Sequence record: MW741821.1
Length of the DNA stretch: 64,000 nucleotides
DNA from: Escherichia phage vB_EcoP_DE5
Reading direction: 5' to 3' (one strand)
Positions 4,107 through 38,127 of this stretch are shown in pieces. The notes below the pieces were generated by a model. That model was not told the DNA's origin, searched no databases, and saw only the letters and a program-made list of their open reading frames with translations. The translations under genes were made by a program, and so were the position numbers. Each line of letters starts with the position of its first letter. Within the stretch, counting starts at the first letter, position 1.

Positions 4107-4844
4107 TTAAGCTTTCTTTTCCATTGCTTTAACAATCGCCTTACAGAAACCAGAACGAACAATATCATCTGATTCACCATCTACAATCTCAGCAAACTCA
4201 TACAGATCATGTTCATCAATAAAGTTAGTAGCCCAAGTAAGACCACTCTCACGACCACGCATATCATGCTGGTTAGTATCGCCCATGCAGAACAGCTGAG
4301 AGGTTTCTCCCAATCGAGTCATGATCGAGAAGGCTTCATCTTTAGTGGTGTTCTGGAACTCATCAACAATAACAATAGCATCATTGAAAGAACGACCACG
4401 GAGATATTCCAGAGGTACGAACTCAATGTTACTGTTACCGAGCTGGCATTCATAGAACCCCTTACCATATCGCTGAGTAATAACATCAATGATAGGCATC
4501 AGGTAAGGTTCAAACTTCTCGCGCATTCCTCCCGGAAGTAACCCAAGGGAGTTGCCCATGCCAACCGAAGGGCGACTCAGAATGATCTTCTGAATCTTAC
4601 CACTTTTCAGTGCATCAATAACCGTGGAAGTGATTACAAAGGTCTTACCACAGCCCGCAGGAGCGTCTGTGAACACAACTTGTTTAGTCTTAATAGCATT
4701 GAGTAGCTCAGACTGAAACTGGTTCTGAGGGACTACAGGCTTTGCTAAAACCACCTCTTCATACTCTCGCTTACCCTTACGAGTAACAAGAGCTTCCCGA
4801 CGAAGGTCTTTCCGTGATTCTTTCCGTGATTGACGACGACTCAT
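4107..4844 (-). CDS. phoH: PhoH-like ATPase
   Basis: 245 aa; Walker A-like APAGCGKTF, Walker B-like IVDEFQN; typical PhoH length. Confidence 0.85.
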   Translation of the reverse strand: MSRRQSRKESRKDLRREALVTRKGKREYEEVVLAKPVVPQNQFQSELLNAIKTKQVVFTDAPAGCGKTFVITSTVIDALKSGKIQKIILSRPSVGMGNSLGLLPGGMREKFEPYLMPIIDVITQRYGKGFYECQLGNSNIEFVPLEYLRGRSFNDAIVIVDEFQNTTKDEAFSIMTRLGETSQLFCMGDTNQHDMRGRESGLTWATNFIDEHDLYEFAEIVDGESDDIVRSGFCKAIVKAMEKKA

Positions 4845-5038
4845 TTACGCTCTCCAATTTCTTCGTAATGACACTCAGTAGTTAAGCAGTCTTTACAGAT
4901 TGCTGTATAAACCCTGACGTTAGTAAATCGTTTGTTCTTCCCTTTGGTTGGAGAGCCTTTGGCAAGCTCTCTGATAACCTTGTTACTTAAATGAAGGTTT
5001 GTTCCTTCACATTTAGAGCACTTCACCACAATGTCCAT
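4841..5038 (-). CDS. small zinc-ribbon protein
   Basis: 65 aa; CSKCEG...CKDC; start/stop overlap with phoH. Confidence 0.45.
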   Translation of the reverse strand: MDIVVKCSKCEGTNLHLSNKVIRELAKGSPTKGKNKRFTNVRVYTAICKDCLTTECHYEEIGERK

Positions 5039-5223
5039 TCAGTAAGAGACCACAGAGAGTCACCTATGTGGGCATTGTCATTCCTGATGAGGTCTTTGAT
5101 TTTATCAACATCAGTTAAGTGAGTCACATTCAAAATGTCCTCAACATCCGGGGCATATTTAAATATGGCAACAATACTGTTGCAATCTTCAGCGTATCTT
5201 TCTAGAACATAAACTACGCTCAT
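5023..5223 (-). CDS. hypothetical protein
   Basis: 66 aa ORF in operon. Confidence 0.4.
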   Translation of the reverse strand: MSVVYVLERYAEDCNSIVAIFKYAPDVEDILNVTHLTDVDKIKDLIRNDNAHIGDSLWSLTEWTLW

Positions 5224-5543
5224 GCGACGTTAACCTCTTTATGAAGTCTGTAAACAGCTGTCGCCATACAAGCAACAGCTTCGTTATGTGGGAGATGCAT
5301 ACCTGTAGAACCATCCCAATCTTTAAACTCGTTGTCAAAGACTCCAGTAGGTTCTGGATACAGAGCTTGCAGCTCCACTAGATCATTAGCAACTTGTTGC
5401 CATTTATCATCAGACCAGATAGGGTCATCCAACCAGTAATACAAATAGGAATGGATGATCAATTGCCTTCTATGCCGATTGATTACTTCAGCGGGACTTA
5501 TCTCACTTCCATTTGAAGTCCTAAATGTATTACTGTCAATCAT
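5220..5543 (-). CDS. small protein resembling the N-terminal Ia domain of NAD-dependent DNA ligase (LigA)
   Basis: 107 aa; HSYLYYWLDDPIWSDDKWQQV...ELQALYPE matches the LigA HxYxYxxxDxPxIxDxEYD...LE...P pattern (recalled from E. coli LigA). Confidence 0.5.
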   Translation of the reverse strand: MIDSNTFRTSNGSEISPAEVINRHRRQLIIHSYLYYWLDDPIWSDDKWQQVANDLVELQALYPEPTGVFDNEFKDWDGSTGMHLPHNEAVACMATAVYRLHKEVNVA

Positions 5544-5725
5544 TTCACAACCTTAAATTTGAATGTTGTTGGGTGATAATAATGCAATCTATTGATAGTG
5601 TGTTTTGTTTCAAGATATATCCTGCAAGAGTGGCACATGACATGGGTCAGACCAGTTACAGGATTAGGTTTAAAGTTGGCGACAGTCTTCTCTTTATTGC
5701 AGAAGCTACAGACTTTCTTTTCCAT
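5540..5725 (-). CDS. small zinc-ribbon protein
   Basis: Internal start MEKKVCSFCNKEK...CHSCR; track ORF 5540-5788 trimmed to this Met. Confidence 0.4.
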   Translation of the reverse strand: MEKKVCSFCNKEKTVANFKPNPVTGLTHVMCHSCRIYLETKHTINRLHYYHPTTFKFKVVK

Positions 5726-5939
5726 CTTTTCTCCAGTGGTCAACGAATTGCTGAAACACTTTACGATCAAATGTGAAATTACGAGCAATTCCGCATTCTC
5801 TAAAAGTGGCAGGCATATAATCTACATCACCTTCAGATGTATGACCATAGACTTGAATAAGATTCTTAATCTTATCCTTCTCTCTTCGAGGAAGCATTCT
5901 AAATGCCTCCTGAATATCTGTAATATGTTTTATCTTCAT
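5706..5939 (-). CDS. hypothetical protein
   Basis: 77 aa ORF. Confidence 0.4.
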   Translation of the reverse strand: MKIKHITDIQEAFRMLPRREKDKIKNLIQVYGHTSEGDVDYMPATFRECGIARNFTFDRKVFQQFVDHWRKDGKESL

Positions 5940-5951
5940 AAGGAATTCCTG

Positions 5952-6086
5952 CTAATCCTCTGAGTTGTGGGAACAGCAATATTCACATACTCCGCAACAT
6001 GGACAAATTTCTACACTTGGGTCATATGCATCATCAACTGTCATCCCACACTTGGTGCAGAACACATCGTCATCTTCTTCCAACAT
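5952..6086 (-). CDS. small Cys-rich protein
   Basis: 44 aa, four Cys pairs, GGAG SD; TAATG overlap with stop of upstream ORF; below track size cutoff. Confidence 0.4.
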   Translation of the reverse strand: MLEEDDDVFCTKCGMTVDDAYDPSVEICPCCGVCEYCCSHNSED

Positions 6087-6334
6087 TAATTCTCCAAACA
6101 AGAATCATTCATCAGTAGCTCCAAACTATCAAGTGTGTAGTAATAACCAAAGAATGGGGCTGTTGACTTGGAAACCTTTTTATCAAAAAGAGATTGAGAA
6201 AGATTTATTTCTACTCCAGCATCTTCAAGCTGTTGTTTTGTGGGGTATGTAATGAAAGAGCAAAGCACTTCTGTGTACTCCCCTCTGTCTGTCTCTTCAA
6301 CACGACTCAGAATCCAAATACTTTTACTAGCCAT
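6086..6334 (-). CDS. hypothetical protein
   Basis: 82 aa ORF. Confidence 0.45.
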   Translation of the reverse strand: MASKSIWILSRVEETDRGEYTEVLCSFITYPTKQQLEDAGVEINLSQSLFDKKVSKSTAPFFGYYYTLDSLELLMNDSCLEN

Positions 6335-6335
6335 T

Positions 6336-6992
6336 TTAACTCTCCAAAGTTTTCTTCAGAGCTGCCCATGAGATTGGGTAGAGTTTAGCCATCTCTTCAT
6401 CCAGAGATTGAGCAAACACTCGAACTTCATATTGAGCGTGAGAGGAGAGTCGCTGACGACACAACTCAAACCAGCCATACAAAGAACCAGTCCACACCCA
6501 CTCAGTGATCATCCCCTGAGGAAGAACAAATCGAGCTTGCTCCGGTGCAACAAATTCAATCAACTTGTCATATGCTGCTAGAGAAGCTTCATATGCATCG
6601 TTAATCAGCATTAATGCTTCAGCTCGCTCTCCGTCGATGAGTTGAATCCCTGAACCTGCATGGAGGTCCGAAGGTCTCGCAAAAATCTCTTTAGGGATGA
6701 AGACTTCAACTGCTCCATCTTTATACCGCCGGGACATTTCGTTCCACGAGAATCCAACCTGATGCTTGCCCAGCTGTCTCGCAATTGCGATAGGTGCTTT
6801 GCATCGGAAACTGACTTGCGGGTGTCGGAATGGGGTAACATGCTTCTCTCTTGCGAGGAAATTGATGAGACGTTCATCACGTTCATTTAAATCACCTTCA
6901 CGGGTTACGCCAAAGGAAACTCGAGCTGCGTTTACTACGCTACGATCACTTCCCATAGCTTCGATTAATGTTGCTTGTAGTTGTTCATTCAT
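6336..6992 (-). CDS. thyX: flavin-dependent thymidylate synthase ThyX
   Basis: 218 aa; FRHP...SRRY resembling the ThyX RHR...SxRY signature. Confidence 0.85.
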   Translation of the reverse strand: MNEQLQATLIEAMGSDRSVVNAARVSFGVTREGDLNERDERLINFLAREKHVTPFRHPQVSFRCKAPIAIARQLGKHQVGFSWNEMSRRYKDGAVEVFIPKEIFARPSDLHAGSGIQLIDGERAEALMLINDAYEASLAAYDKLIEFVAPEQARFVLPQGMITEWVWTGSLYGWFELCRQRLSSHAQYEVRVFAQSLDEEMAKLYPISWAALKKTLES

Positions 6993-7007
6993 CCGTGAAT
7001 ATCCTTA

Positions 7008-7283
7008 TTACTTATTGCTCAGGGCTGTGTCCAAAAATGCTTTCAGGTTTGCTTCAGTCTGCATACCGGAGAGACTGTAGTGTGCACCACTATTACGGTC
7101 AGGTACAACAAAAGCAGGGATGCTTCGTACACCATACTTAACAGCTTGTTCACGACCATCACCTTCAAGGATGTTAATCTCTTCCACTTCTACATCAAAC
7201 TCCTTAACAACCTTCTCAAAGGTAGGAGCCATTGCTTTACATGGAGCACACTGATCACTATAAAACTTAATTACTTTAGACAT
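7008..7283 (-). CDS. thioredoxin-like protein
   Basis: 91 aa with CAPC active-site-like motif. Confidence 0.7.
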   Translation of the reverse strand: MSKVIKFYSDQCAPCKAMAPTFEKVVKEFDVEVEEINILEGDGREQAVKYGVRSIPAFVVPDRNSGAHYSLSGMQTEANLKAFLDTALSNK

Positions 7284-7291
7284 GTAAATCC

Positions 7292-7471
7292 TTATGCAGT
7301 CAGGAGGTGAAGCAGGAATGGGATAACAACAGCTACGATAACCATGATGGTTGATGCTGTTTGAATCTCACCTTTCTTATCAGGAGTTTCTTCAATAAGC
7401 TTACCAGAAGCCCAATAAATACCACCACCAATAAAGATAGCCCAAATACCCCATACGATTGCTGATAACAT
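7292..7471 (-). CDS. small membrane protein
   Basis: 59 aa hand-translated (MLSAIVWGIWAIFIGGGIYW...), two hydrophobic segments; below track cutoff. Confidence 0.4.
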   Translation of the reverse strand: MLSAIVWGIWAIFIGGGIYWASGKLIEETPDKKGEIQTASTIMVIVAVVIPFLLHLLTA

Positions 7472-7532
7472 ATATCTATATCCTTATAAATAAGTTCGCC
7501 CCACCTCGGGTTAGGAGACAGGGCGGAGGTTT

Positions 7533-8144
7533 TTAGTAAGACACGTCACCACTTGAATGGGACATGTTGCTCTTGACGAAGTAGCAATACTTGCCAAGAC
7601 CTTCATTAATTTCTTGAAGCATACTCTGATCGACAGGGTAGGTGGCTAAATCACCATCAAACTCATCCATCTTCTCAATAATACACATCAAGGTCATGCA
7701 CATATCAGAGAGCATACCGTCCATGTCTAGATCAGCATTACCCTCTGAGAACCAAGCATGAGAGAGGTAGTTAGCTGCTGTAGCATCCACTTTAACACAG
7801 TGGTAACGCATACGTTCAGCAATACGATCTCCTACCTGTCGTGCGTAATCTTCCAGCTCATCAAACATACCATGAACACCCTGAAATCCTGCACCAGAGA
7901 CGTTCCAGTGGTAGTTTTTAGCTTTGATATGCAAGAGTTCCATGTTAGCTTGTAAGCAGCTCAGGATGTGTTCTAGGCTGTTTGCACTAATCATGCCTTG
8001 CATTGTTTCAAGGCGAGAGATTGAAAGCTCAGATCGGTCTAACATACTATAACTGTCACGACCAATCTCAGGTAAATCAAAGACATTCTTATGCATTTGG
8101 GTTTTCTCCATCAAGTTCAACTGAGTTAGCAACATTACGTGCAA
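7533..8144 (-). CDS. Dps/ferritin-like protein
   Basis: KAKNYHWNVSGAGFQGVHGMFDELEDYARQVGDRIAERMR resembles Dps KxxHWNxxGxxF..H...DE...D.IAER; true start may be internal. Confidence 0.55.
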   Translation of the reverse strand: MHVMLLTQLNLMEKTQMHKNVFDLPEIGRDSYSMLDRSELSISRLETMQGMISANSLEHILSCLQANMELLHIKAKNYHWNVSGAGFQGVHGMFDELEDYARQVGDRIAERMRYHCVKVDATAANYLSHAWFSEGNADLDMDGMLSDMCMTLMCIIEKMDEFDGDLATYPVDQSMLQEINEGLGKYCYFVKSNMSHSSGDVSY

Positions 8145-8418
8145 TATTATCCATTACCTGCTGGGTAATTACGATGCAGTTCTGTGGGTCTACTGACTTA
8201 GAACGCCCCATTTCAGGATCATACACCTTAACTCGCTTAGCAGTTGAACCTGTAACCTGAAGAACCTTCAACAGATATCCCTGATTACCAATAGACCAAG
8301 CAACAACATCACGATTCTTGATAAAGCGACCAAGCATATCACGATGATAAAACTGTTGCATCACCTTGGATTTTGTAATCTCTTCAGTGGGCGGGGCCAC
8401 TTTACTCAAATCTAACAT
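8089..8418 (-). CDS. hypothetical protein
   Basis: 109 aa; TAATGTATA-like motif about 40 nt upstream. Confidence 0.45.
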   Translation of the reverse strand: MLDLSKVAPPTEEITKSKVMQQFYHRDMLGRFIKNRDVVAWSIGNQGYLLKVLQVTGSTAKRVKVYDPEMGRSKSVDPQNCIVITQQVMDNIARNVANSVELDGENPNA

Positions 8419-8453
8419 AACTCTCTCCTGTAAAATACAAATTCTTATTGTAC

Positions 8454-8465
8454 TCTATATACATT
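8454..8465 (-). promoter_or_regulatory. putative phage-specific promoter element (AAATGTATATAG)
   Basis: Near-match to the TAATGTATATAGG motif recurring upstream of plus-strand genes. Confidence 0.35.
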
Positions 8466-8490
8466 TGAGAGTTATCATATCTACTACCAA

Positions 8491-8700
8491 TCAGTAGTAA
8501 ATTACTTTAGACATAAAAGAACCAGTGTTAGGGTCTTCATACCAGCGATGTATGTCAGCGCTTTTTACTATTGTGCCCAGAGTCTTCAACTGTTTCTTAG
8601 CAATACGAGCCTCTTTGCGAGTGTCAAACAATTTGATGTTATCTTTTCTCATGTGTTGCTCAAGATCCCAAACAACATGAATAGCCCACATCTTTTTCAT
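8491..8700 (-). CDS. hypothetical protein (paralog triplet member)
   Basis: 69 aa; tandem with two similar-sized ORFs, abutting start/stop, shared C-terminal Y(Y). Confidence 0.5.
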   Translation of the reverse strand: MKKMWAIHVVWDLEQHMRKDNIKLFDTRKEARIAKKQLKTLGTIVKSADIHRWYEDPNTGSFMSKVIYY

Positions 8701-8909
8701 TAGTAATGTACCTTTCCGCTGATATAAACACGACCAGAAGAATACTCTTTGGCCTTATGGATACTGATACTGTTGACCACGTCACCAGTAAGCATAGTCT
8801 TTTTAAAATCTCGAGCTTGTTGGCGAGTGGGTAGTGCAGTCATAGTCATACCGCCTGATGCCCACTTAATCTTTGCTAACCAAATTTTTCTCATAGTGAT
8901 TGGTCTCAT
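8700..8909 (-). CDS. hypothetical protein (paralog triplet member)
   Basis: 69 aa; same pattern. Confidence 0.5.
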   Translation of the reverse strand: MRPITMRKIWLAKIKWASGGMTMTALPTRQQARDFKKTMLTGDVVNSISIHKAKEYSSGRVYISGKVHY

Positions 8910-9106
8910 TAGTAATAAACCTTACTGTTGGCAAGAAAAGCACCTTCGCTATTCACAATAGCTTTCCCCAACGTAACCTTGCTGAGTCTAAAAGTAGACT
9001 TGTATTGGTTTTTGACCCTACGGGCGTGCTCTCGAGTATTAACAAAATCTACAGCTACTAACTCTCCAGTCGTGTTATCATGTACACGAACAATCCACTT
9101 TTTCAT
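8909..9106 (-). CDS. hypothetical protein (paralog triplet member)
   Basis: 65 aa; same pattern. Confidence 0.5.
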   Translation of the reverse strand: MKKWIVRVHDNTTGELVAVDFVNTREHARRVKNQYKSTFRLSKVTLGKAIVNSEGAFLANSKVYY

Positions 9107-24369: not shown

Positions 24370-24383
24370 AGGGGAAATTCCTT

Positions 24384-24419: not shown

Positions 24420-24433
24420 AAATCGGGCCGCCC

Positions 24434-25600: not shown

Positions 25601-25608
25601 ATTGATTC

Positions 25609-25920: not shown

Positions 25921-26415
25921 ACATCCTCCAATTAATTGTTAAAACTATCAGGGGAGAACACTAGCTCTGGGCCACGCTGTAGATATTGGCCTACCTTCCA
26001 CAGCTAATCAGCTAATATACTCCCCTAATAGTTTATGAATAGGGGGAGGGGACGAATCCTCCCTTATCCTATTAGTTAATATTGCATGTAAGATCTAACA
26101 ATCGGTTGCCTTTGTAGGAATAAGCGTAAAGCCAATCCAGCACTAAACTCCCGCCCCCTTAGTGGGCTGGGTTATTAAAGGGTAACGCCCTTATGGGCTA
26201 GTTACATGAATGTTAGTTTGATAGGAGATCTGAAGTCCTATCTCAAAGGACTCTCGTAAGAATCCTTCACGATATTACTTATTCATCTCTCGTCGGCTAT
26301 CTCTCCAAGCCAACCAAGTGTAGGTTTTCAGTTCTTCAAAGTCTTCTGGAGAGAATAGATACTCTTTGAAGGTGTTCCCAAACCACTCTAAAAATTCTTC
26401 AGTCATAAGATTCTC

Positions 26416-26589
26416 TTAACAAGATTGGTCACACGGCTGATCACCACATGTTTTACAGATCACTGGTGAGTAACTACAGGCAGGATAAACAGACACCCCA
26501 TCAAACGTCTCACATCCACAATCAGGACATGTACCGTTGGATTCCATGTCATCATCGTCATCTACTTCACCGCCACCAAAACAACTCAT
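26416..26589 (-). CDS. small acidic Cys-rich protein
   Basis: 57 aa hand-translated (MSCFGGGEVDDDDDMESNGTCPDCGC...), AAGGAG SD; below track cutoff. Confidence 0.4.
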   Translation of the reverse strand: MSCFGGGEVDDDDDMESNGTCPDCGCETFDGVSVYPACSYSPVICKTCGDQPCDQSC

Positions 26590-26598
26590 ACAGGCTCC

Positions 26599-26820
26599 TT
26601 AGTAAACTAAACCTGTAGCCTTTGCATCAGGCTGAGGGACTACTTTTGCACTAGGGCGATAGCCATCCACTGAGCCGTTCCAAAGATTGACACAGGTGAT
26701 ATATCCATCGTCTATGATGTCTGTTTTAATCCAGAAGTGTTTATCATGACCAAAAATACTTCCGTTTGGCAGCGTGGACAATTCAACAGTTTTAAGTGAC
26801 TGCTTAGAGTCTAGTTTCAT
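26599..26820 (-). CDS. small protein, paralog family member
   Basis: 73 aa; MKLDSKQSLKTVELSTLPNGSIF. Confidence 0.5.
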   Translation of the reverse strand: MKLDSKQSLKTVELSTLPNGSIFGHDKHFWIKTDIIDDGYITCVNLWNGSVDGYRPSAKVVPQPDAKATGLVY

Positions 26821-26829
26821 ATAAGTTCC

Positions 26830-27027
26830 TTAATATACCAAACCATGTAAAAGAAACATCCTCTTTGTAAGCTCTGCTTTAGCTCTGTAATAAGCCTTAG
26901 AACCTAACAGGCGGCTCTTAACAAAGAACTTAATGTCATTGCTAACATCTTGTATTAAACGCTCCTGTACAGTTTCTGAGGAGTTATTAATCGAATCAAT
27001 TAACACCTTTGTAGATGTGTAATTCAT
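26830..27027 (-). CDS. hypothetical protein
   Basis: Track ORF 26830-27219 trimmed to internal Met with AAGGAG SD (65 aa). Confidence 0.4.
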   Translation of the reverse strand: MNYTSTKVLIDSINNSSETVQERLIQDVSNDIKFFVKSRLLGSKAYYRAKAELTKRMFLLHGLVY

Positions 27028-27028
27028 A

Positions 27029-27328
27029 TCACCACTCCTTACCGGTTGTAATCGTAGAGCCACCACACCACAATGCTGTATCAATAACAACATTATCCGG
27101 TGTAGACTTCTCTTCGTTGATAGAAGGGTTAGCATTAGAACAGGTTGCTCCGTTCCATCGCATATCAATTTCACCAGAAGGAATCTTCTCACCCTTATGC
27201 CAGCGAGAAACACAAACACCTTCCACTGCTACTGCACACCATCCATCAGGACGGCTCTGTACGCAGCCTGTAAGGGCTATGCAGACAAGGAAGATACAGA
27301 TTAAGGATATTACACCACCCCAACTCAT
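27029..27328 (-). CDS. predicted lipoprotein
   Basis: 99 aa; signal peptide with lipobox ALTGC; AGGAGGT SD. Confidence 0.6.
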   Translation of the reverse strand: MSWGGVISLICIFLVCIALTGCVQSRPDGWCAVAVEGVCVSRWHKGEKIPSGEIDMRWNGATCSNANPSINEEKSTPDNVVIDTALWCGGSTITTGKEW

Positions 27329-27348
27329 AATTACCTCCTATTAGATTT

Positions 27349-27440
27349 GGTGGACTATCTGGAATCGAACCAGAAGCTCACTAAGAAAGTAATTCCCACT
27401 GTTATAAAAGCACTTGCCTCAACAGGGATACACTAACTCT
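27349..27440 (-). other. tRNA-like element (T-arm present; full cloverleaf not resolved)
   Basis: Minus-strand UCUGG-UUCGAUU-CCAGA T-arm followed by UAGUCCA-CCA, but no matching 5' acceptor strand found by hand. Confidence 0.3.
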
Positions 27441-27468
27441 GGTGCCGCACCCATACTAGCCCTAAATG

Positions 27469-27544
27469 TGGTGCGCCCTACAGGACTCGAACCTGTAACC
27501 AATAGCTTAGAAGGCTACTGCTCTATCCATTGAGCTAAGAGCGC
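27469..27544 (-). tRNA. tRNA-Arg (anticodon TCT)
   Basis: Hand-folded: acceptor GCGCTCT/AGGGCGC, D-arm GCTC-AATGGATA-GAGC, anticodon stem GTAGC/GCTAT with loop CTTCTAA, T-arm ACAGG-TTCGAGT-CCTGT, discriminator A, encoded CCA. Confidence 0.85.
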
Positions 27545-27719
27545 AGAATTATTTAGATCATATCTCGCTTGGTGATATGACCACATGTTTTACATCGAAG
27601 TATATAACGAGTACCTGTGTCTTCTATTTGACCAATCTCATTATATATGTGTAAACGAACTTCTTTTATTGTCTCCCAATCATGCAGATGGAATAGACGT
27701 TTAAACCACTTGAACATAA

Positions 27720-27953
27720 TTACACCACCTCAACGAGAGATGTTTTCCATGCAAACAGAGGTCCATTATCGTTAAGATAAACAGCTCCTCCCGTCTCGAA
27801 CGGAGTCCCATAAGGAAGTGCCCAAGCATACCCACGAATTTCTGGCTTATGGGTAAACCCATATACCTCGCCGTTGCTATCAGTTGCTAAATATCTTATA
27901 GAGCTGTCCACTTTAACAACTTCGCCAAAATATTTAACCTCTTTTCCTTTCAT
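27720..27953 (-). CDS. hypothetical protein
   Basis: Track ORF trimmed to MKGKEVKYF Met with GAGG SD. Confidence 0.45.
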   Translation of the reverse strand: MKGKEVKYFGEVVKVDSSIRYLATDSNGEVYGFTHKPEIRGYAWALPYGTPFETGGAVYLNDNGPLFAWKTSLVEVV

Positions 27954-27960
27954 ATTAACC

Positions 27961-28212
27961 TCAAGCACAAGCAGGGAGTGTGATGATTTTATGCTTACCA
28001 TCAAATTCTCCAAATAAACCTAAGAATGTGGGACTGTAAGTTCCAGTACAAACAAACTCATCAAACAATGCGTTATAACTAGGCTTGATCTTCCAAGCCC
28101 ATACATAACCCATCTTGTCAATTGCAATGTAACGAGTGTTCAGAGGAACAGTCATCATTATACCATCAACTTCGATCACTTTAGTGATTGGTGCAGCTTG
28201 GAAGTTTTTCAT
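27961..28212 (-). CDS. hypothetical protein
   Basis: 83 aa ORF. Confidence 0.45.
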   Translation of the reverse strand: MKNFQAAPITKVIEVDGIMMTVPLNTRYIAIDKMGYVWAWKIKPSYNALFDEFVCTGTYSPTFLGLFGEFDGKHKIITLPACA

Positions 28213-28385
28213 ACTTTACCTTTGATAAAAATGTCATTACCACAGACACAGCATGAACGAACAACAGTAGCGCCACGCTGAACAATACGAACCTCTTCCT
28301 TAACCAGACTAATACGAGCACCGCAGCAAGGAGAGTTGACATAAGAGTAACCAGCTTGCGTATGTTTGATTATTTGCTTAGACAT
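28209..28385 (-). CDS. small zinc-ribbon protein
   Basis: 58 aa hand-translated (…SPCCGAR…SCCVCGN…); ATGA overlap with downstream gene. Confidence 0.4.
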   Translation of the reverse strand: MSKQIIKHTQAGYSYVNSPCCGARISLVKEEVRIVQRGATVVRSCCVCGNDIFIKGKV

Positions 28386-28731
28386 TTGATTCTAGATCTC
28401 TTAGTTGTTCAGCCAATTGTTCGCATTCATTAACGCAGAACTCTTCTGTTCTTGGTATCCCGTTAGGGTTGAACCGTGTCTTATCACCTGCATGGGCACA
28501 ATCAAATCCGATTGTATCTAAACCACCCATCTCTTCAAGGGTGTCTTGCCATGTGACACCACCATGAACACTTACATAACAAACCTCTTCCTTTCCGTTA
28601 TATCCGGTGAAGTTTTTATGTTTTAAGCTGTCTGGTAGCTCTACATATCCACAAAAATGGGAGTCGTTCATGTGCATAATCACAGCACGAAGACCTGATT
28701 TAGTGACCCAATCTTTAACCATGCGTCTCAT
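28378..28731 (-). CDS. hypothetical protein
   Basis: Track ORF trimmed to MRRMVKDW Met with GGTG SD (117 aa). Confidence 0.45.
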   Translation of the reverse strand: MRRMVKDWVTKSGLRAVIMHMNDSHFCGYVELPDSLKHKNFTGYNGKEEVCYVSVHGGVTWQDTLEEMGGLDTIGFDCAHAGDKTRFNPNGIPRTEEFCVNECEQLAEQLRDLESNV

Positions 28732-28769
28732 ATAAGCACCTCTTGTTAGTTTAAGTAAGAGTTGTCCCT

Positions 28770-28803
28770 TAATTAAAACAACAAAGGCCACCCGAAGGCA
28801 GCC
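28770..28803 (-). terminator. Rho-independent terminator (possibly bidirectional)
   Basis: Hairpin GGCUGCC-UUCG-GGUGGCC with U-rich tracts on both sides. Confidence 0.55.
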
Positions 28804-29311
28804 TTTTATTTATTAACTGTTATACGTCCAATTACCTTGCTTGTTACGGATGGCTGACATTGCATGAATCCAAAAGCCTTCCAGTTTCAGAGCACCATTA
28901 GCTACTGCATCCATACGTTCAGGGCGGTTCATACGTTTGGTTGATACTTTCATACCTATCTCTCTTTGTTAGTGGAGGCATTATTGCCAGTTGATATAAG
29001 GGATAGCCCTAGTCAGTAGACTAACCCTGACCGCGTACTCATTGCCGACCTTCTCTGCCTAAGAGTTCAGGTTCTAGAGCTATCTCTTATTCCAACTGGT
29101 GAAGACTCCCTACCCCTAGGAAGTCTCCTGAATCCCAAACCAATACGTACCCCTACATATCGGAAAGTCTTTCGAAAATTAACAGGTTTTAGTCTAACAC
29201 CGGATGTTCGAGCAAGCTCTCCCTAGCGGTGTGGCATATGCCTGAATTAATAAGTTAATGAGGAACACCCTCACATAGCCCTCTGATAAACACAAGGGCT
29301 ATAAGTCGGTG

Positions 29312-29530
29312 TTACTTTTGGGATAAACACAGATCAGGTCGTGGCATAACAGTGGTTGATAGACCGAAGACTTCAACAGAACCACTGCTCAAGTTAGCAG
29401 CCTTACACAAACCATCAGGGGTTTTATCTTCTAGCATCAGCCAGAAACGTTTATCATAAGAGAAAACATCACCACCTTTAACGTCCTCTGCATTTGCATA
29501 TTTAGGATAATCAACTACTTTAATTTCCAT
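29312..29530 (-). CDS. small protein, paralog family member
   Basis: 72 aa; ...AEDVKGGDVFSYDKRFW. Confidence 0.5.
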   Translation of the reverse strand: MEIKVVDYPKYANAEDVKGGDVFSYDKRFWLMLEDKTPDGLCKAANLSSGSVEVFGLSTTVMPRPDLCLSQK

Positions 29531-29540
29531 CTAATTGCCC

Positions 29541-29759
29541 TTATTGATATATAGAAAGGTGGATAAGTTTATTAACATGAGCGAAGTTAGGAAGGATTTG
29601 CATCTCATTGTTGAAGATATTAAAACAACGAACCCCGCCCTCTACAGCATAAGCAGATTTCTGAAACAGACTGCCTCCCCACACAAATACATCATGTGTT
29701 TCAAGAGATCGTAACTGAACAGCCTCGTCAACAACCTTCTTTTCAATGTTCATATTCAC
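29541..29759 (-). CDS. small protein, paralog family member
   Basis: 72 aa; ...LRSLETHDVF. Confidence 0.5.
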   Translation of the reverse strand: MNMNIEKKVVDEAVQLRSLETHDVFVWGGSLFQKSAYAVEGGVRCFNIFNNEMQILPNFAHVNKLIHLSIYQ

Positions 29760-30007
29760 TTCCGATTGGTAATTACTGCATCATGGATAACTGAAACAGG
29801 TAAGTTTGAATCTAGCTTCATTACTTGATTGGTGCTTAAACTGAGCACTACACAACCATTCCGAAGATCAGTCTCTGACACATGTGGTGTATATAACTGA
29901 ACGATCATGTAATAATCAATACATGTTGCCTTAACTTGGAATACATCACCAAGTTTCAAATCACCCACACACAATTCTTTAGCTTTCATCTCAAGATCAA
30001 TCTTCAT
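29756..30007 (-). CDS. small protein, paralog family member
   Basis: 83 aa; ...VGDLKLGDVFQV. Confidence 0.5.
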   Translation of the reverse strand: MKIDLEMKAKELCVGDLKLGDVFQVKATCIDYYMIVQLYTPHVSETDLRNGCVVLSLSTNQVMKLDSNLPVSVIHDAVITNRK

Positions 30008-30233
30008 CTTTAGCCTCTATGTTGGTTATGTGAAGATCACTACGTACTTGGCAGACTTCATCCCGTTTAAAAGGCATGAGCTTTCCAGTTACCACATCAA
30101 CACAGTTGACATAATTGTCTGCGTACAATGTGTCGGTTCTGATGTAAAGGGATTCTTTACGCTCAAACAGAACCCCCGGCTTCATGTTATTTAAGCGAAG
30201 CATTGTACGATCGGATTTAATATTAACTTTCAT
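29997..30233 (-). CDS. small protein, paralog family member
   Basis: 78 aa; ...LNNMKPGVLFER. Confidence 0.5.
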   Translation of the reverse strand: MKVNIKSDRTMLRLNNMKPGVLFERKESLYIRTDTLYADNYVNCVDVVTGKLMPFKRDEVCQVRSDLHITNIEAKDED

Positions 30234-30235
30234 CT

Positions 30236-30493
30236 TTAATCCACCTTATTGGTAAGTCGAGCATTATCAACTACCTGAACAACAGTATCTTTTCTCAACA
30301 TTGTTATTCTATCCGAAGTGAGATCTACTACTACTCTTTCGTCAGGCTTCCAACTAGCTGAATAAACGGTTGAGGAATCTAGCTTTACTGTAAGATATAT
30401 TTTATTTTTAGGTGGAACAGTTTCAAAAACACTCCCCACCTTCAGGTCTTTCAGTTGCTTGACTACAGGGGCTGTATTAATATCATGCTTCAT
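30236..30493 (-). CDS. small protein, paralog family member
   Basis: Trimmed to MKHDINT Met with AGGAG SD; ...LKDLKVGSVFETV. Confidence 0.5.
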   Translation of the reverse strand: MKHDINTAPVVKQLKDLKVGSVFETVPPKNKIYLTVKLDSSTVYSASWKPDERVVVDLTSDRITMLRKDTVVQVVDNARLTNKVD

Positions 30494-30779
30494 TGTTAAT
30501 CTCCTGCTGTTTAGCAATAGCCACTCGCAAGTCTTCATTAGCACGAGCAAGGCGTAACACTTCGTGGTTGAGGTTCTGAAGACGCTTGTTTCTGTCCTCT
30601 ACTTGCATAATAAGATCATTAAGTGTTACTTTAACTTTCTCATTATACATCTCATCCACTCGAACTAGGGATTTATACATTCTCTCCCAGCTTGCTGCTT
30701 TGTTTCTGAGAATAATAAATCCTAGAACGCTGATAGTTAAACAGCTTACAAAAAGGAATTTATATACTTCTAAAGTCAT
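30483..30779 (-). CDS. membrane-anchored coiled-coil protein
   Basis: 98 aa; N-terminal hydrophobic helix then heptad-like charged region. Confidence 0.45.
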   Translation of the reverse strand: MTLEVYKFLFVSCLTISVLGFIILRNKAASWERMYKSLVRVDEMYNEKVKVTLNDLIMQVEDRNKRLQNLNHEVLRLARANEDLRVAIAKQQEINNEA

Positions 30780-30978
30780 ATTATTTACCCTTTATCAGAG
30801 ATTAAAAGTAATATTATTTAAGTAAGTTATATTTAGTAAACTTATTTTCTAAGAAATTTTCAAAGGGTCTATATACAGAGCATTACCCATAGTCCCAGAA
30901 TACTGCCATCTTTTTCAATAAATTTACTAAGTGGTTGGTTTATAAAGGAATTTAGTTTGTCAAATCTGGCACTAGTGA

Positions 30979-31368
30979 TTATTCCCTAGAGCTATTATCG
31001 AACACTAAATCACCACAATACATAGGATTGGCATACCATTTTGGCACCCCTTCGCTCTTACTCTGAAAGTAAGTCCCACTGTACAGCGGAACATAATTCT
31101 TCTTAAGGGCACGTTTAGCTAGCCTCTCGCTTTCTCCAATGGCTTGCTTAGTCATCGGATTTTTATCACGAATCAGCTTTACATAACGTTTATAAGGTTT
31201 CTCCTGTTTTAATAGTACCGGAATCCACTCAAACTGGTTCTTTTGTCTTATCACCTGTTCAGCGGTCAGTTTTCGTTGGGCCATTCTATTTATCACGGTA
31301 TCCGCAACTAAAGCCTTACATGCGGTTGGCTGATTCCCTGCCTCATAATAAATAGTCAATGTCAACAT
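30979..31368 (-). CDS. cell wall hydrolase (SleB-like)
   Basis: 129 aa; EAGNQPTACKALVADTVINR resembles the conserved N-terminal block of SleB-type hydrolases. Confidence 0.55.
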   Translation of the reverse strand: MLTLTIYYEAGNQPTACKALVADTVINRMAQRKLTAEQVIRQKNQFEWIPVLLKQEKPYKRYVKLIRDKNPMTKQAIGESERLAKRALKKNYVPLYSGTYFQSKSEGVPKWYANPMYCGDLVFDNSSRE

Positions 31369-31502
31369 TAGCTGTGCCGTTGTTATCAGAACTTGATACC
31401 TCCTGTTTTACGGGCATAAAAAAGCCCCAGCCGTAGCCGGGGCAAACCTGAAAGCAACACATGACCGTTGCTATAAATACACTCGCAAATGCACTTACAG
31501 CA

Positions 31503-31528
31503 ACGCAAAAAGCCGCTCAAAGGCGGCT
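31503..31528 (-). terminator. Rho-independent terminator (minus strand)
   Basis: Hairpin AGCCGCC-UUUGA-GCGGCU followed by UUUUUG. Confidence 0.55.
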
Positions 31529-31565
31529 ATGCGGAAGCTTCAAATGGGGAGAGGGCACGACGCGA

Positions 31566-31597
31566 CAGAAAGAGCGTCATAGTACTAAAAAGAGAGG
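31566..31597 (-). repeat. conserved 25-30 nt intergenic element (copy 2) containing TTTTAGTACTATGACGC
   Basis: Matches 24434-24462 with a few transitions; followed on the minus strand by terminator 31503-31528. Confidence 0.5.
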
Positions 31598-31758
31598 CTA
31601 TTGGAGAGGTTACTTATTGCCTTCCTTAATGCCTTGTTTTCTTGTTTAACCAATTCGTTTTCTTCTTGCAAGGATGCTACCAGATGGACCAGAACATCAA
31701 CTACTGCATCACCTTGCCGCATCTCTCTGACTTTATTTAGAATCTCTGAATAAATCAT
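31585..31758 (-). CDS. small hypothetical protein
   Basis: 57 aa hand-translated (MIYSEILNKVREMRQ...); ATGA overlap with upstream gene stop. Confidence 0.35.
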   Translation of the reverse strand: MIYSEILNKVREMRQGDAVVDVLVHLVASLQEENELVKQENKALRKAISNLSNSLSF

Positions 31759-32198
31759 TTTACCCTCGCCTCTTTGATGGGGTCGATGTATTTCTCAACG
31801 CCCCACTTGTGTTTACTATCTGCGTAGAAAACATCAGGTGCACATTGGCTTGTTTTAGGGAAGGCTTGCGGGTCTTTCGTGCTCCCCTTAAACTTCTGTT
31901 TACCTCGAGTGCGACCATTACAGAAGATTTCTAACTTCTTCTCCTCTTCTGTTTTAGCTCCCCCGCTCTGTAACAAAGAACGTTTATGATCAGCTAACAA
32001 CAACGCATCAGCCCGATGGACACGATGGCCTACACGTTTTGCCACACTGGAAGGAACATGGGATTCAGCCTCAGCCTTTGCAGCACGACGTTTTAAACTA
32101 CGCTTACTAACGTGATTAGTTGCCTTCGGTTTCTCTTTCTCCAGTTCAGAGATAGAAAAACAACGCCCGCCCTTCATGCTGATTTTTGATTTAGCCAC
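31755..32198 (-). CDS. basic hypothetical protein
   Basis: 147 aa, Lys/Arg-rich. Confidence 0.5.
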   Translation of the reverse strand: MAKSKISMKGGRCFSISELEKEKPKATNHVSKRSLKRRAAKAEAESHVPSSVAKRVGHRVHRADALLLADHKRSLLQSGGAKTEEEKKLEIFCNGRTRGKQKFKGSTKDPQAFPKTSQCAPDVFYADSKHKWGVEKYIDPIKEARVK

Positions 32199-32267
32199 AA
32201 TCTTATTCCTTTCAGTGATAAGTTATATCGGGCAAGCCCATCAAGTCGATAGGCTTGAACAAATAAC

Positions 32268-32477
32268 TTAATCAAGTAAACTAAATGACTTCCAACTGCG
32301 TAGCAGGATTGTACCATCATCCATAACTACACTTAATTGCAATAGTTTTTTGTTGCAACTACTCACCGTTGTAATTCGTCCGGTTGTACTTTTACCTTTA
32401 TTGCTGTAAAGATATACAACACGACGGCCTAACAAGCGGGAAGGTGCTTTCTTAAATGCTGAAATGTTAGTGATCAT
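32268..32477 (-). CDS. hypothetical protein
   Basis: 69 aa; ATGA coupling with upstream ORF. Confidence 0.4.
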   Translation of the reverse strand: MITNISAFKKAPSRLLGRRVVYLYSNKGKSTTGRITTVSSCNKKLLQLSVVMDDGTILLRSWKSFSLLD

Positions 32478-32698
32478 AATGCTTGATACCTTTGAATGTG
32501 TTCAATACGGGTGGATTGAGCAAATGACGCTTTAACAGCCATTTTCCTAACTTCTTCTTTACGCTGGTTAGTGTGTACAGTATCCCAATGATTGTTATCA
32601 CGTTGGCGCTGTAATATCTTACTACATTTGCGATGGTTTCCCGTGCTGCGATGTTTCTCACAAATAGGACACTTGCCAAAATTACTACTGAATATCAT
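32474..32698 (-). CDS. small zinc-finger protein
   Basis: 74 aa; CPICEKH...HRKC. Confidence 0.4.
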   Translation of the reverse strand: MIFSSNFGKCPICEKHRSTGNHRKCSKILQRQRDNNHWDTVHTNQRKEEVRKMAVKASFAQSTRIEHIQRYQAL

Positions 32699-32922
32699 TT
32701 TCTCAATCCCAGCTTTCTTAAGATACGGCCTAACGTTGTTTCTTGCGTGATAATATAGCTGATCGCTTCACGTTCCAATGTTTCAATCTTCATTGGCGAC
32801 GGATACCATTCACCGGTAATAACACATTTACATTCAACGCCATACTTTTTAGATAGGCGGTAATGTTGACCGTTGACAAGATTTCTATAAATCGTGGTAT
32901 GTGTAATTAACATGATCGTCAC
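32695..32922 (-). CDS. hypothetical protein
   Basis: 75 aa ORF. Confidence 0.4.
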   Translation of the reverse strand: MTIMLITHTTIYRNLVNGQHYRLSKKYGVECKCVITGEWYPSPMKIETLEREAISYIITQETTLGRILRKLGLRK

Positions 32923-32965
32923 CTTTGATTAGATTCTTTGATTAATGCACTGAATCAATGCACTG

Positions 32966-33000
32966 ATAAAAGAAAAGGCGCTACCCGTTAAGATAGCGCC
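32966..33000 (-). terminator. Rho-independent terminator (minus strand)
   Basis: Hairpin GGCGCUA-loop-UAGCGCC followed by UUUUCUUUUAU. Confidence 0.55.
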
Positions 33001-33024
33001 TTATGTTTATTCAAATTGTCTTAC

Positions 33025-33933
33025 TTATGCCGCCTGACGTGCCGCCATAATTTCAGCCGCTTTACGCAACACTTCTTCCTCTTCTGCTTTCGCCGCTTGT
33101 TCGGTACGGGTAGCAACCGTTGAAGAGATACGACCGCGCAGACTTTCTAACTTCTCCTGCATAGCTGCAACAGTCTTTTCCATTTCATCAGCGTATGAAT
33201 CGAGTGATTCTAATTCCTTGCTTGATGCGTTCATCAGATAATCATCCGAGATCGCTACCGTTGAGGCCGTGACTTTCTTGATGAGTGAATCAAAGGACTT
33301 TTTAACCTTCCCAACTTCTTCACTCAGGGCGATAGTGTTATCGCTAGTTGCGCCGTTGCGCTCATCAGCCAGTAATTTGGCTTCAATACGGATTGCATTC
33401 AAGCGTTCAACTAAAGCGTAAATATCCTGATTAAAATCTTCCTTGTTTTTCGCCGGAATTTGCAGGTGTGCCGCCACGTTGTCATTACAACCCTTGTAAA
33501 AGTTAGGGTTATCAACTTCAATTTCACGGCCTAAAGCAAAGTTTTCGAAAGCGTTTGACCAGCGAGCGCGGTTTTGTTCCATTTTGGCCTTAATTTGTGC
33601 TTCTTTCGCGTCTTCTTTAGCTTTCGCCTCACCTTCCAGATTAATCCACTTTTTACGACCATTTGCCGCATCGGTGTTAAACTTGATAGGAGTTAAGAAA
33701 GTAATTGCAGTGGCAATCACATCCATATCACGAAAACGTTCAGTTAACAAGAAGTCAACCGCCGTCTGCAATACGTCCAGCTTTTTACCGTTACTGCGGA
33801 AGTGCTGCAAGTGCCCTAACAGGAAGTTAGAAACATCTTGTTTGATCGCCGCGTTATTGCTACGAATGTTGTTAGCCAGTGCGTTAAAACCAGATTCTTT
33901 TACCAGATTAAAGATTTTAGCCATGATATTCAC
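33025..33933 (-). CDS. hypothetical protein (first gene of the minus-strand arm)
   Basis: 302 aa ORF adjacent to the central ORF-free region. Confidence 0.55.
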   Translation of the reverse strand: MNIMAKIFNLVKESGFNALANNIRSNNAAIKQDVSNFLLGHLQHFRSNGKKLDVLQTAVDFLLTERFRDMDVIATAITFLTPIKFNTDAANGRKKWINLEGEAKAKEDAKEAQIKAKMEQNRARWSNAFENFALGREIEVDNPNFYKGCNDNVAAHLQIPAKNKEDFNQDIYALVERLNAIRIEAKLLADERNGATSDNTIALSEEVGKVKKSFDSLIKKVTASTVAISDDYLMNASSKELESLDSYADEMEKTVAAMQEKLESLRGRISSTVATRTEQAAKAEEEEVLRKAAEIMAARQAA

Positions 33934-34747
33934 CTTTCAATTGTAAGGGCGCTATTGCCCCGCTCTCTATGAGCTTGTTTAAGTCACTATTAACTTAACT
34001 ATAACCGCTAACTATTCAGTAGTTATAGGTAAGTGGGGCGGTCTTATCAGGAGTTAACCTTGCCGCCCCCTTATCCGTGATGTTTCATCTGGTATCTTTA
34101 ATTAGTCGCTATAAACGAAGCCGACCTGATAGCGATGATCAATCATCACAATAAGGCAGTGCGTCCGACTCTAATTAGTTACGTTATTGTAACCGTCGGC
34201 AATATCGTTTACTTTGCTTTCGCTCTCGCCTATCCTTTTATATCAACTCTCAATCGCTAGTCATCGCCCACTACGGGATACTATTGCGAAAGAGTCATTG
34301 ACCGTCTAATGTTCCGACGTTTTATATCTTTCGGCAAGTTTACTACATAAACCGACTATGTACTTTCATCATAAGATGAATCTCAAGCCGTTCACATCGT
34401 AAACGTTCACACTAAACCTTATTGTTAAATAGCAATTTGCCACTTTTTAACCACTCCCCGCCGCTCTCAATTGAGCGTTAATTCGTCGGGATTGCCTACC
34501 CTGATTAACTTCTTTCACCGTAGCACCATGTTAGCGATGACCGCCGCTACCCTTAACCGTGGGCGATTAGCTTAAGCCTTTGCGTGTACTCGATGAATCT
34601 GTTTATCAGTGGTGACGTTTCCAGTAAGGGAATGTAAAACTGTTTACCCTGATAATTTAGGGAGTTTTACGCCGTTTTATCTGGTATGTTATCCGATGGT
34701 TATTATCATCTAACATATTCAACCGATATAGGAGAATGTTTAAATTA

Positions 34748-35372
34748 TTAAAGAGCGGTAAATCTATCAGTGTGCTTTCTCACACTATGCAACTGTTAGC
34801 CGTTGTTACGCTTTTCACTGAAGCGATGATTTGCTTAGTGAGTGCTCATTATGAATCATGTTGTTTTCGCTGTCAACCGCTTTTTAATCTTTTTTCGTCG
34901 TTCCCGCTATTGGGAGGATATATCAATCAGCTTTATTTGATTGAAGATTAAGCGGTGAGGCTTAACTTATGACTCATATTGTTAAAGAGCGTTTAGCCTT
35001 TTAAAGTGTCTGCTAATCACTGTCACATTGAAGGCTTACTGATTCATTAACAGGCCGCCTACACCTGAACTAATCGCTGCACTATGTGCCACCTTTCCCG
35101 CGATACGTTGATTTGGGAACTAGTTAGCGATGTTTTGCTAACTTGTGGTTAGTATGGACTACTTTAACCACGTTTGCAACTCTTTTTATCATCTTCTTTT
35201 AATTCCTTTCCCTTATCTCGCGTGAATCTATGCGAAAGGGCAAGATGATAAGTTTTTAAAGAGCGGGATTTTTTAAGTCATCGCTGACTATGCTCACTAT
35301 ATATCAGGCTTTTTCTGGTGTCAATACTCTTTTTAAGTATTTTCACTTTCTAGCCTGATTTTTAAAGAGCGG
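34748..35372. repeat. four dispersed copies of TTAAAGAGCG(G) within an ORF-free region
   Basis: Copies at 34748-34758, 34982-34991, 35246-35256, 35362-35372; no ORF of 60 aa or more between 33950 and 35700 except one short frame. Confidence 0.55.
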
Positions 35373-35603
35373 GGCAAGTTTCCTTGCCTTGTATGTTTTT
35401 CATCGTACCCGATGAATTGAAGTATACGCCAACCAATGTGTAATGCAATAGGGTAAAGCAAATTATTTTAAACTTTTTCATAGTGGGATAGGTAAAAGAA
35501 CGCGCACGCGTGATACATCATAGAAAATAGCTTGTAAAGCATTATTTAACGGCCTGTAACGCATCACAACGAGCTAAAGGAGGGTAAGGAATACAATCAC
35601 CTT

Positions 35604-35632
35604 AGAAATGAGAAAAGCCTCACTAGGAGGCT
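35604..35632 (-). terminator. Rho-independent terminator (minus strand)
   Basis: Hairpin AGCCUC-CUAGUG-AGGCU followed by UUUCUCAUUUCU. Confidence 0.5.
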
Positions 35633-35709
35633 TACAGGAAGGATTTAAAGCAACAGATACAGTAGGACCATAGGCATGACTACGGCACAATATAGGAGAA
35701 AGATTAAGC

Positions 35710-36087
35710 CTATGGATTTACACATTGACCTAAACCGGACTCAATTTCATTCATGGACTCATCAAAGAGCGTCAACGATGAGCGCATCAAGTGATCTATC
35801 GTGATTTGTTTACCGGTAGTTTCATTTACCAGCAGAATAGCTTTGTTATCTGATTGCACATGATCAAAATCATTTACATGCAAAATAATAACTTTAGGTG
35901 ACTGTTTACCAGTTTCATAGTTTTCTATCAAATAGGTGCACTGTAAACTGTCAACCGTAGCAGGGGAGAACATTGCAGCCTTAACACTACCCATAGACGA
36001 TAGGAGAACGCCCAGCAGGAGAACGACAAGGAAGAAGCCCACGAATACTTTTACTACAAATTTGATAATACCCATGATAATAATCAC
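35710..36087 (-). CDS. membrane protein
   Basis: 125 aa; N-terminal transmembrane segment. Confidence 0.5.
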   Translation of the reverse strand: MIIIMGIIKFVVKVFVGFFLVVLLLGVLLSSMGSVKAAMFSPATVDSLQCTYLIENYETGKQSPKVIILHVNDFDHVQSDNKAILLVNETTGKQITIDHLMRSSLTLFDESMNEIESGLGQCVNP

Positions 36088-36172
36088 CTATAGTTAGAGA
36101 ATATAAGAATAAAGCATATCAGCGACGAATAACGCCACTGTAACGACGAACAAGCAACGCCAAAAATAATCA

Positions 36173-36448
36173 CTATTCATCGTTGCTATTCTCGCCAAAA
36201 AATGCTACGCTAATCTGTTCCACTTCTTCCAGCGACAGGAGAATCCCGCGTTGGGCTAAATACTTCCCAACAGTTAGATAATCTTGCACTAAACAGACAA
36301 TAGGAAAGCGTATATTTTGAATCTCACCTTTGGAAAGAAAAGACAAATATCCAACGTCGATTGATTCATCAAAGGACAATGTAACGCCACCGTAATTATG
36401 CGTATCAATTAACGCAATAGTTTCATTTCCCATTGGTATCATCCCCAA
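36173..36448 (-). CDS. hypothetical protein
   Basis: 91 aa ORF. Confidence 0.45.
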   Translation of the reverse strand: MGMIPMGNETIALIDTHNYGGVTLSFDESIDVGYLSFLSKGEIQNIRFPIVCLVQDYLTVGKYLAQRGILLSLEEVEQISVAFFGENSNDE

Positions 36449-36689
36449 TCAGACCATGATTAAGCAGGTTAGCCAGCGACAAATCACCGTCAATATAGAT
36501 TGATCTGAAATCATCGCGGGTAATTTCGAAATCAGCAAAGGCTAGCCAGTCTTTAAGAGGCTGATATTCCATCCTGCAAAAAGTGATAACAGGCAAGATT
36601 ATCTGACCATCAAGTGTATTAAACATGATAGAGCTTCCACCAACAAAACAAGAAAAACCGTTAGATAATTTAACTTCTTTAATAGCCAT
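36423..36689 (-). CDS. hypothetical protein
   Basis: 88 aa ORF. Confidence 0.45.
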   Translation of the reverse strand: MAIKEVKLSNGFSCFVGGSSIMFNTLDGQIILPVITFCRMEYQPLKDWLAFADFEITRDDFRSIYIDGDLSLANLLNHGLIGDDTNGK

Positions 36690-36715
36690 TTTTTACACTC
36701 CCAAAAATAGATTAT

Positions 36716-37207
36716 TTACTTACTAGCCTTAATACAGTTGGCTAAATTAACGTGAACAGTATAAACAGCATTATCAGCATTATTGTAAACAGTGGTGGCG
36801 ATCATCGACTCATTAACTGGGCCATAACTCACTAGATTGGTTACAGCTTTAACATCTTCGTAACGTTGTACAGTGCCATAAGTCACCATATCCGCATCGT
36901 TATCAGTACGCTTGAGAACTAGATCACTGTTAGGCTGATTATCTAACGTTTTAGATTGAAAGAGAACGCCATCATTAGTAACGTTGCTAAATTTCATCTT
37001 TAGCACGGTATTATTGCCGTCACTATCCGCACCGTTGCAAATCATCCAACCCTTATTGATGGAACTAGAGAAGACACTAGCCGCATCAGTTGCAGGAGCA
37101 GGACTAGCGATAGCCTTATCAGAAAGAGATGTGACCAGTGCACTAACACCGATAGCTGCAACCAGTGCATAACTTGCCAGATTAACTACCTGCATTGCTT
37201 TAGCCAT
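36716..37207 (-). CDS. secreted protein with N-terminal signal peptide
   Basis: 163 aa; hydrophobic h-region then Ser/Ala-rich stretch; two Cys that could form a disulfide. Confidence 0.55.
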   Translation of the reverse strand: MAKAMQVVNLASYALVAAIGVSALVTSLSDKAIASPAPATDAASVFSSSINKGWMICNGADSDGNNTVLKMKFSNVTNDGVLFQSKTLDNQPNSDLVLKRTDNDADMVTYGTVQRYEDVKAVTNLVSYGPVNESMIATTVYNNADNAVYTVHVNLANCIKASK

Positions 37208-37421
37208 TTCGTTATTCCTTAGATAGATTCAATCAACTGTCATCAACTATATAATAAAGGAAAAGGCTGTCAACCATCTATTTTCTAACTTTCTTGCATC
37301 CTCCTGAAAACTAAAGGAATTTAATTTGCTAAACTTTCCATACTCAGAGAATCAGCTTACTTCTTATTGTTACTTTATAACACTACGGGTAACAGACCAA
37401 CAGACCAGGACAAACGGGGAT

Positions 37422-37812
37422 ACAACAACCGCAGGACAGACCACGGGGAAACATAGCAAGATAGTGCGGTAATAATATACCACTTAAATAATCATCAACT
37501 CATAAAAGAAAAGACCATTCGCTACGCTCATAAAGGCACGCTGAAAAAGAAAAGATTAAAAGAAATACAATCATCCACTTAATTAATACATACATCATTA
37601 TTGCACTCATAATCATTACTATTGAAACTATTTACATTCAAACTATGGGGGATGTGGGCTATTACTTATGGGTATTATTAGCCTCTTATGGTAGTGCCTG
37701 TACAGTGCTAGCCTTTCTCTCACTCTCTAAAGGGGAACTAAATAAACGGGTAGCTAATGAATAGGATGGTATACACGGGGAAAGAATAACGGGGAGTAGG
37801 CACGGGGAAACG
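37422..37812. repeat. five copies of (C)ACGGGGA(AA) in two clusters
   Basis: Copies near 37423, 37443, 37775, 37790, 37803; ACGGGGAAAC exact twice; track ORF 37686-37910 here is probably spurious. Confidence 0.45.
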
Positions 37813-37953
37813 CTGGAACGTGGAAGGAGGTGTAAAGGCATTGCCAATAACCCTTTTTTAAATGAGGACTCCCCCCTTTTAGGAAACGCGCGGGAAGCGC
37901 CTAGCCCCACTCGGTCAAATCAGAATTTTAAACTCTTATATATAAGGTTAAGT

Positions 37954-38127
37954 ATGAATCTAATTAAAGTATTTAGACGGATGAAGTGTAAGCACAATTA
38001 CTATCTTCTTCGTAAAGCTTACGGGGATGAAAGAATACATGGTCTCTACCTATCAACATGGAAGTGTAAGGAATGTGGTAAGTTGAGATTCAGTACATGG
38101 GTTGACAGACCAGTCAGTAGGCCTTAA
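37954..38127 (+). CDS. small zinc-ribbon protein
   Basis: 57 aa hand-translated (MNLIKVFRRMKCKHNYY...WKCKECGKL...); first plus-strand gene of right arm. Confidence 0.4.
   Translation: MNLIKVFRRMKCKHNYYLLRKAYGDERIHGLYLSTWKCKECGKLRFSTWVDRPVSRP

Follow-up and report, generated by a model that had tools for sequence, protein, structure and literature searches.

The 64,000-nucleotide stretch of Escherichia phage vB_EcoP_DE5 analyzed here (MW741821.1; hereafter the window) encodes eight to ten tiny Cys-rich proteins of unrelated families, a feature that is real but ordinary for phage genomes. A sequence-only reading had picked out seven open reading frames (ORFs) with paired CxxC motifs and regarded them as zinc-ribbon proteins of a kind that often inhibits host proteins or modulates transcription. 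We favor, with a probability of about 0.72, a mixed group of eight or more small, mutually unrelated proteins, most likely structural-Zn2+ mini-domains, whose functions probably differ from protein to protein.

In the proposed explanation, proteins of 44–97 amino acids (aa) would be made from real, tightly packed genes, several of them translationally coupled to their neighbors, in the leftward operons (early and middle) of Kuravirus (phiEco32/SU10-like), one further gene being gene 1. Each protein would present four conserved Cys/His ligands in two short half-sites, and the two acidic proteins would hold 8–9 Cys. The conservation of these ligands suggests that they most likely chelate structural Zn2+, and that the metal could let a polypeptide of insufficient length for a hydrophobic core keep a defined binding surface. 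The sequences carry this mechanism as far as a predicted zinc-stabilized mini-domain that would bind something.

Conservation and enrichment of the Cys-rich genes

Judged by their conservation, the ORFs are real genes. Each protein is a clear full-length member of its own PHROG (14369, 15951, 16989, 13157, 18461, 6887, 7696, 8294 or 9585; E 1e-16 to 1e-46), and none of the matches from deep-homology searches carries a functional label. Four ligands, arranged as two short CxxC-type knuckles about 10–40 residues apart, are conserved among the homologues. The seven translations agreed with those of the sequence-only reading. For the first ORF, conservation places the start at the GTG at 5026 (61 aa) and not at 5038. 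Paired CxxC motifs, claimed for all seven, are strictly present in the ORFs beginning at 4841, 5540, 5952 and 26416 (ORFs are named below by their first position), while the remainder carry variant half-sites: CC...CCVC in 28209, CxxC-x8-HxxC in 32474 and CxH...CxxC in 37954. The list was also incomplete, as at least two further genes (27553–27717 and 3432–3725) and possibly a third (23921–24139) belong to the set.

Three of the genes lie in the middle block, all on the - strand. The 4841 ORF (4841–5038; phrog_14369, E 6e-45) occurs in 106 phage records, exclusively from kuravirus-like phages and Salmonella 7-11-like phages; its Cys residues are retained in IME267 at 58% identity, and its ratio of nonsynonymous to synonymous substitution rates (dN/dS) is 0.06–0.53. 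The 5540 ORF (5540–5725; phrog_15951, E 2e-45; dN/dS 0–0.25) yielded only 3 clusters among 5.8 billion proteins, all from contigs of about 77 kb. The 5952 ORF (5952–6086; phrog_16989, E 4.5e-16; dN/dS 0.03–0.05) is found in 50 records, exclusively kuravirus-like, in which it is variously labeled 'membrane protein' or 'putative NAD+ diphosphatase' (NAD+, nicotinamide adenine dinucleotide).

Another three, also on the - strand, lie in the early block. The 26416 ORF (26416–26589; dN/dS 0.05), with its strict CxxC pair, has counterparts in 88 phage records, among them those of Proteus, Pseudomonas, Serratia, Cronobacter, Pantoea and Erwinia phages, and a 340-kb contig carries one homologue. The 28209 ORF (28209–28385; phrog_18461, E 1e-41; dN/dS 0.12–0.17) is present in 72 records, exclusively kuravirus-like. 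The 32474 ORF (32474–32698) was found in 179 phage records, among which are N4-like Gamaleyavirus, Klebsiella and Erwinia phages; in phage Uz-1 the homologue sits within an N4-type early block and is the sole gene in common. The seventh ORF, 37954–38127 on the + strand (phrog_7696, E 1.4e-16), corresponds to gene 1, which lies at the left end of the genome, and occurs in 94 records, Acinetobacter phage Presley (39% identity) among them.

The additional members are all encoded on the - strand. The 27553–27717 gene (phrog_8294, E 2.5e-22; dN/dS 0.23–0.33) reads HLH...CKTCG, that is, an HxH...CxxCG motif, and is distantly paralogous to the 37954 ORF, matching phrog_7696 at E 0.0046. A transfer RNA (tRNA) gene at 27472–27544 (- strand), tRNA-Arg in relatives, lies immediately downstream of it within the early block. 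The 3432–3725 gene (phrog_9585, E 5.5e-46), orthologous to SU10 gp055, encodes 97 aa with the ligands C8-x6-C15xxC18 ... C47xxHxH and shows 8 synonymous and 0 nonsynonymous differences from its relatives; the orthologue SU10 CDS55 was detected at the protein level by mass spectrometry (PMC4281155 Table 2). The possible third member, 23921–24139 (phrog_33631, E 8e-50), is orthologous to phiEco32 gp91 and encodes 72 aa with four Cys (C-x7-C ... CC) and no CxxC. Its phiEco32 counterpart shares 89% identity and retains the Cys (dN/dS 0.08), and metal binding by this protein is a guess.

Enrichment was assessed among the 59 small ORFs (<=100 aa) of the coding strand. Two or more CxxC motifs occur in 4 of them as opposed to 0.012 expected from global residue shuffling, in which none of 2000 shuffles gave more than 1, and at least four Cys occur in 8, compared with 0.95 expected. 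The Cys share is 2.6% in small proteins versus 1.0% in large ones. As rough baselines we used T7, in which none of 29 small coding sequences (CDS) has paired CxxC, and one N4-like early block of 4.8 kb, in which 2 of 16 annotated CDS encode such proteins. The shuffle excess and the viral baselines together indicate that the feature is real and non-random, yet one already known from certain viral genomes. The ORFs are not one family or system. By charge, two proteins are very acidic (isoelectric point (pI) 4; 8–9 Cys), and all others are basic (pI 8.4–10.2).

Genome organization

The window is the genome of a phiEco32-like C3 podophage (Gordonclarkvirinae, Kuravirus) with E. coli as the host. 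Megablast with positions 4000–12000 and 26000–38500 as queries matched about 100–140 phage records, the closest being Escherichia phage SkaterBoy_Bas90 (96–97% identity), followed by SU10, NJ01, ES17 and others. From position 1 to about 37,200 the genes are encoded on the - strand; those from 37,954 on lie on the + strand. Comparison with phiEco32 places the middle genes for replication and nucleotide metabolism in the window up to about 23,000, the early block of the right genome end at about 23,500 to 37,207, and gene 1 followed by the late genes on the + strand past the genome ends. This agrees with published descriptions, in which the early genes lie at the far right and are of unknown function and the middle genes serve replication and nucleotide metabolism (PMC9965538, PMC8948821). 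The physical ends of the linear phiEco32-type genome fall inside 37,208–37,953. On one side, a near-consensus sigma70 promoter (TTGACA-16-TATAGT; 37273–37246, - strand) stands immediately ahead of the first early gene; on the other lies the left-end gene 1 (phiEco32 record positions 271–414). Since the window thus spans the genome ends, the record is an assembly, circularized or permuted, in which the terminal-repeat region is included.

Predicted metal binding and fold

Of the zinc-ribbon claim, the part describing small Cys-rich metal-binding proteins was supported by ligand conservation, purifying selection and enrichment, whereas the ribbon fold was not: no Pfam zinc-ribbon model matched the Cys-rich proteins at cutoff, and the sole confident structural model is a knuckle with a helix. 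That AlphaFold2 model, for the 32474 protein (predicted local distance difference test (pLDDT) score 87.6), shows a C2HC zinc knuckle capping one 50-residue helix, a predicted fold that is treble-clef-like rather than a ribbon. Searches of NCBIfam gave no match above cutoff, and PDB sequence searches gave either no match or sub-threshold generic zinc-ribbon knuckles (L37Ae, RPA12, Trm112, rubredoxin). A BFVD search returned nothing beyond one uncharacterized Klebsiella-phage homologue. Lar (PF14354) was considered for the 5540 protein and rejected because the Lar_restr_allev model scored 18.9 bits, below the gathering cutoff of 28.6; the label of the neighboring gene derives from PHROG-based annotation without Pfam support, and there is no evidence of restriction alleviation.

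For one member, the 26416 protein, the Cys residues might instead serve in an iron-sulfur (Fe-S) cluster or in redox chemistry, which we consider improbable although it fares best among the alternatives. Its 57 aa hold 8 conserved Cys, with a C-terminal CxxC-x4-C-x3-C, more than one Zn site needs; the phage has its own thioredoxin (7008–7283), and the AlphaFold2 model, calculated without a cofactor, is disordered and unusable (pLDDT 48). However, two Zn(Cys)4 sites would accommodate 8 Cys equally well, CPDCG is a typical zinc-knuckle sequence, the PDB matches, weak and sub-threshold, are zinc ribbons (L37Ae, DUF1610, rubredoxin), and no Fe-S family matched in Pfam or NCBIfam.

Functional roles and alternative explanations

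The early block is driven by sigma70 and is presumed to effect host takeover (PMC8948821, PMC9965538). A role as host inhibitor or transcription modulator fits the 26416, 28209 and 32474 proteins because of their location in this block, and such a role is plausible for the early Cys-rich proteins. Several observations weigh against our interpretation of the set as a whole. The canonical second CxxC is absent from three of the seven ORFs, and functional assignments have position and charge as their entire basis. Furthermore, the SU10 proteome of 34 proteins includes CDS55 but none of the seven, although that sample consisted of polyethylene glycol-precipitated virions, in which small proteins are easily missed, and is uninformative for proteins of 5–8 kDa (PMC4281155).

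We also considered whether some or all of the proteins are stable RNA polymerase (RNAP)-binding transcription modulators, comparable to the zinc-finger proteins TraR and lambda Orf73 or to P2 Ogr and P4 Delta. The P2 Ogr and P4 Delta late-gene activators and Mu Com are small phage zinc-finger proteins with regulatory roles. TraR and lambda Orf73, C4 zinc-finger proteins of the DksA family, bind to the secondary channel of RNAP (PMC9239242), and they resemble the proteins described here in being encoded by phages or plasmids, in their length of about 70 aa and in combining a Cys4 finger with a helical element. However, none of the ten proteins matched DksA/TraR (PF01258) or Ogr/Delta (PF04606) in Pfam at E<=1, nor did NCBIfam give a match, and Mu Com likewise showed no Pfam similarity at this threshold. 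When RNAP from phiEco32-infected cells was analyzed by mass spectrometry, only the sigma factor gp36 and gp79 were recovered, neither of which belongs to the Cys-rich set; these two already explain late transcription in Kuravirus (PMC12276001). The gp79 gene corresponds to 14449–14697 of the window and encodes two Cys without a CxxC. This experiment counts against a transcription role, though very small or weakly bound proteins could have been missed. Taken together, we regard a stable association with RNAP as unlikely.

The promoter word TAATGTATA, which includes AATGTA, the published core of the gp36 promoter, shows no enrichment in the window (19 matches with <=1 mismatch, compared with 20.8 expected), and its copies adjoin none of the Cys-rich genes, the one exception being a perfect copy at 4087–4095 (- strand). 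This copy lies just upstream of the gene at 3736–4050 and downstream of PhoH.

Slightly less probable still is the suggestion that some of the proteins are leftover or stand-alone DNA-binding fingers descended from HNH-type homing endonucleases or from other larger enzymes and retained as fragments that do little by themselves. No HNH catalytic domain following the N-terminal finger (phrog_2340, HNH/homing endonuclease) was found, and the Cys-rich proteins gave no match to the NudC family. That the ORFs are merely chance open frames with coincidental Cys motifs, as their shortness and the presence of two CxxC in two clearly non-coding-frame ORFs as well (17483–17641, + strand; 43432–43533, - strand) might suggest, is already refuted by conservation, given the PHROG matches, annotation in more than 50–170 genomes each, dN/dS well below 1, ligands kept at low identity and the 4 cases observed against 0.012 expected.

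Other elements in the window

Interleaved with the Cys-rich genes of the early block is a second set of small genes, a paralogous family of at least seven proteins of about 72–104 aa (25098–25600, 26599–26820, 29312–29530 and 29756–30550, - strand). Its members are joined by BLASTP at E 1e-3 to 7e-12, and the family represents a local gene-family expansion. A second paralogous pair is located at 2821–3105 and 3107–3361. The gene at 5220–5543 (- strand) encodes a stand-alone NAD+-binding Nlig-Ia domain (PF22745, E 2.7e-35), which is mislabeled 'DNA ligase' in many records. We found this solo protein in 275 phage records, among them those of Arthrobacter, Clostridium, Enterococcus and Erwinia jumbo phages; the solo domain was described as phage-only and was proposed to be an NAD+ sensor or shield (PMC9503650).

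A region of about 1.8 kb (33934–35709) has no credible ORF within the tightly packed early region and is unannotated in SkaterBoy, phiEco32 and SU10. In it, TT(A/T)TTAAAGAGCGG occurs in 4–5 spaced copies, one being inverted. Rfam found only tRNA-Arg in the whole window and no match in this region, which could contain non-coding RNAs, arrays of terminators or promoters, or an element for replication or packaging.

Comparison with other viruses

The closest parallel that we considered is provided by the HF1-group haloviruses, each genome of which is reported to encode 12–14 small CxxC proteins (<100 aa; PMC7230728); zinc-finger micro-proteins of a single domain have also been described in Haloferax (PMC6562870). 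Like the kuravirus set, the halovirus micro-proteins are many unrelated proteins of <100 aa with at least one CxxC pair, encoded mainly outside the virion-assembly module. They belong to other viruses and hosts, however, and have no sequence relationship to the present proteins, which are fewer (about 8–10) and of which several carry Cys/His variant half-sites. The finding thus adds little to what is recorded for these phages: the genes are annotated as hypothetical in about 100 genomes and are contained in PHROGs, and the richness of viral genomes in small CxxC proteins has already been documented.
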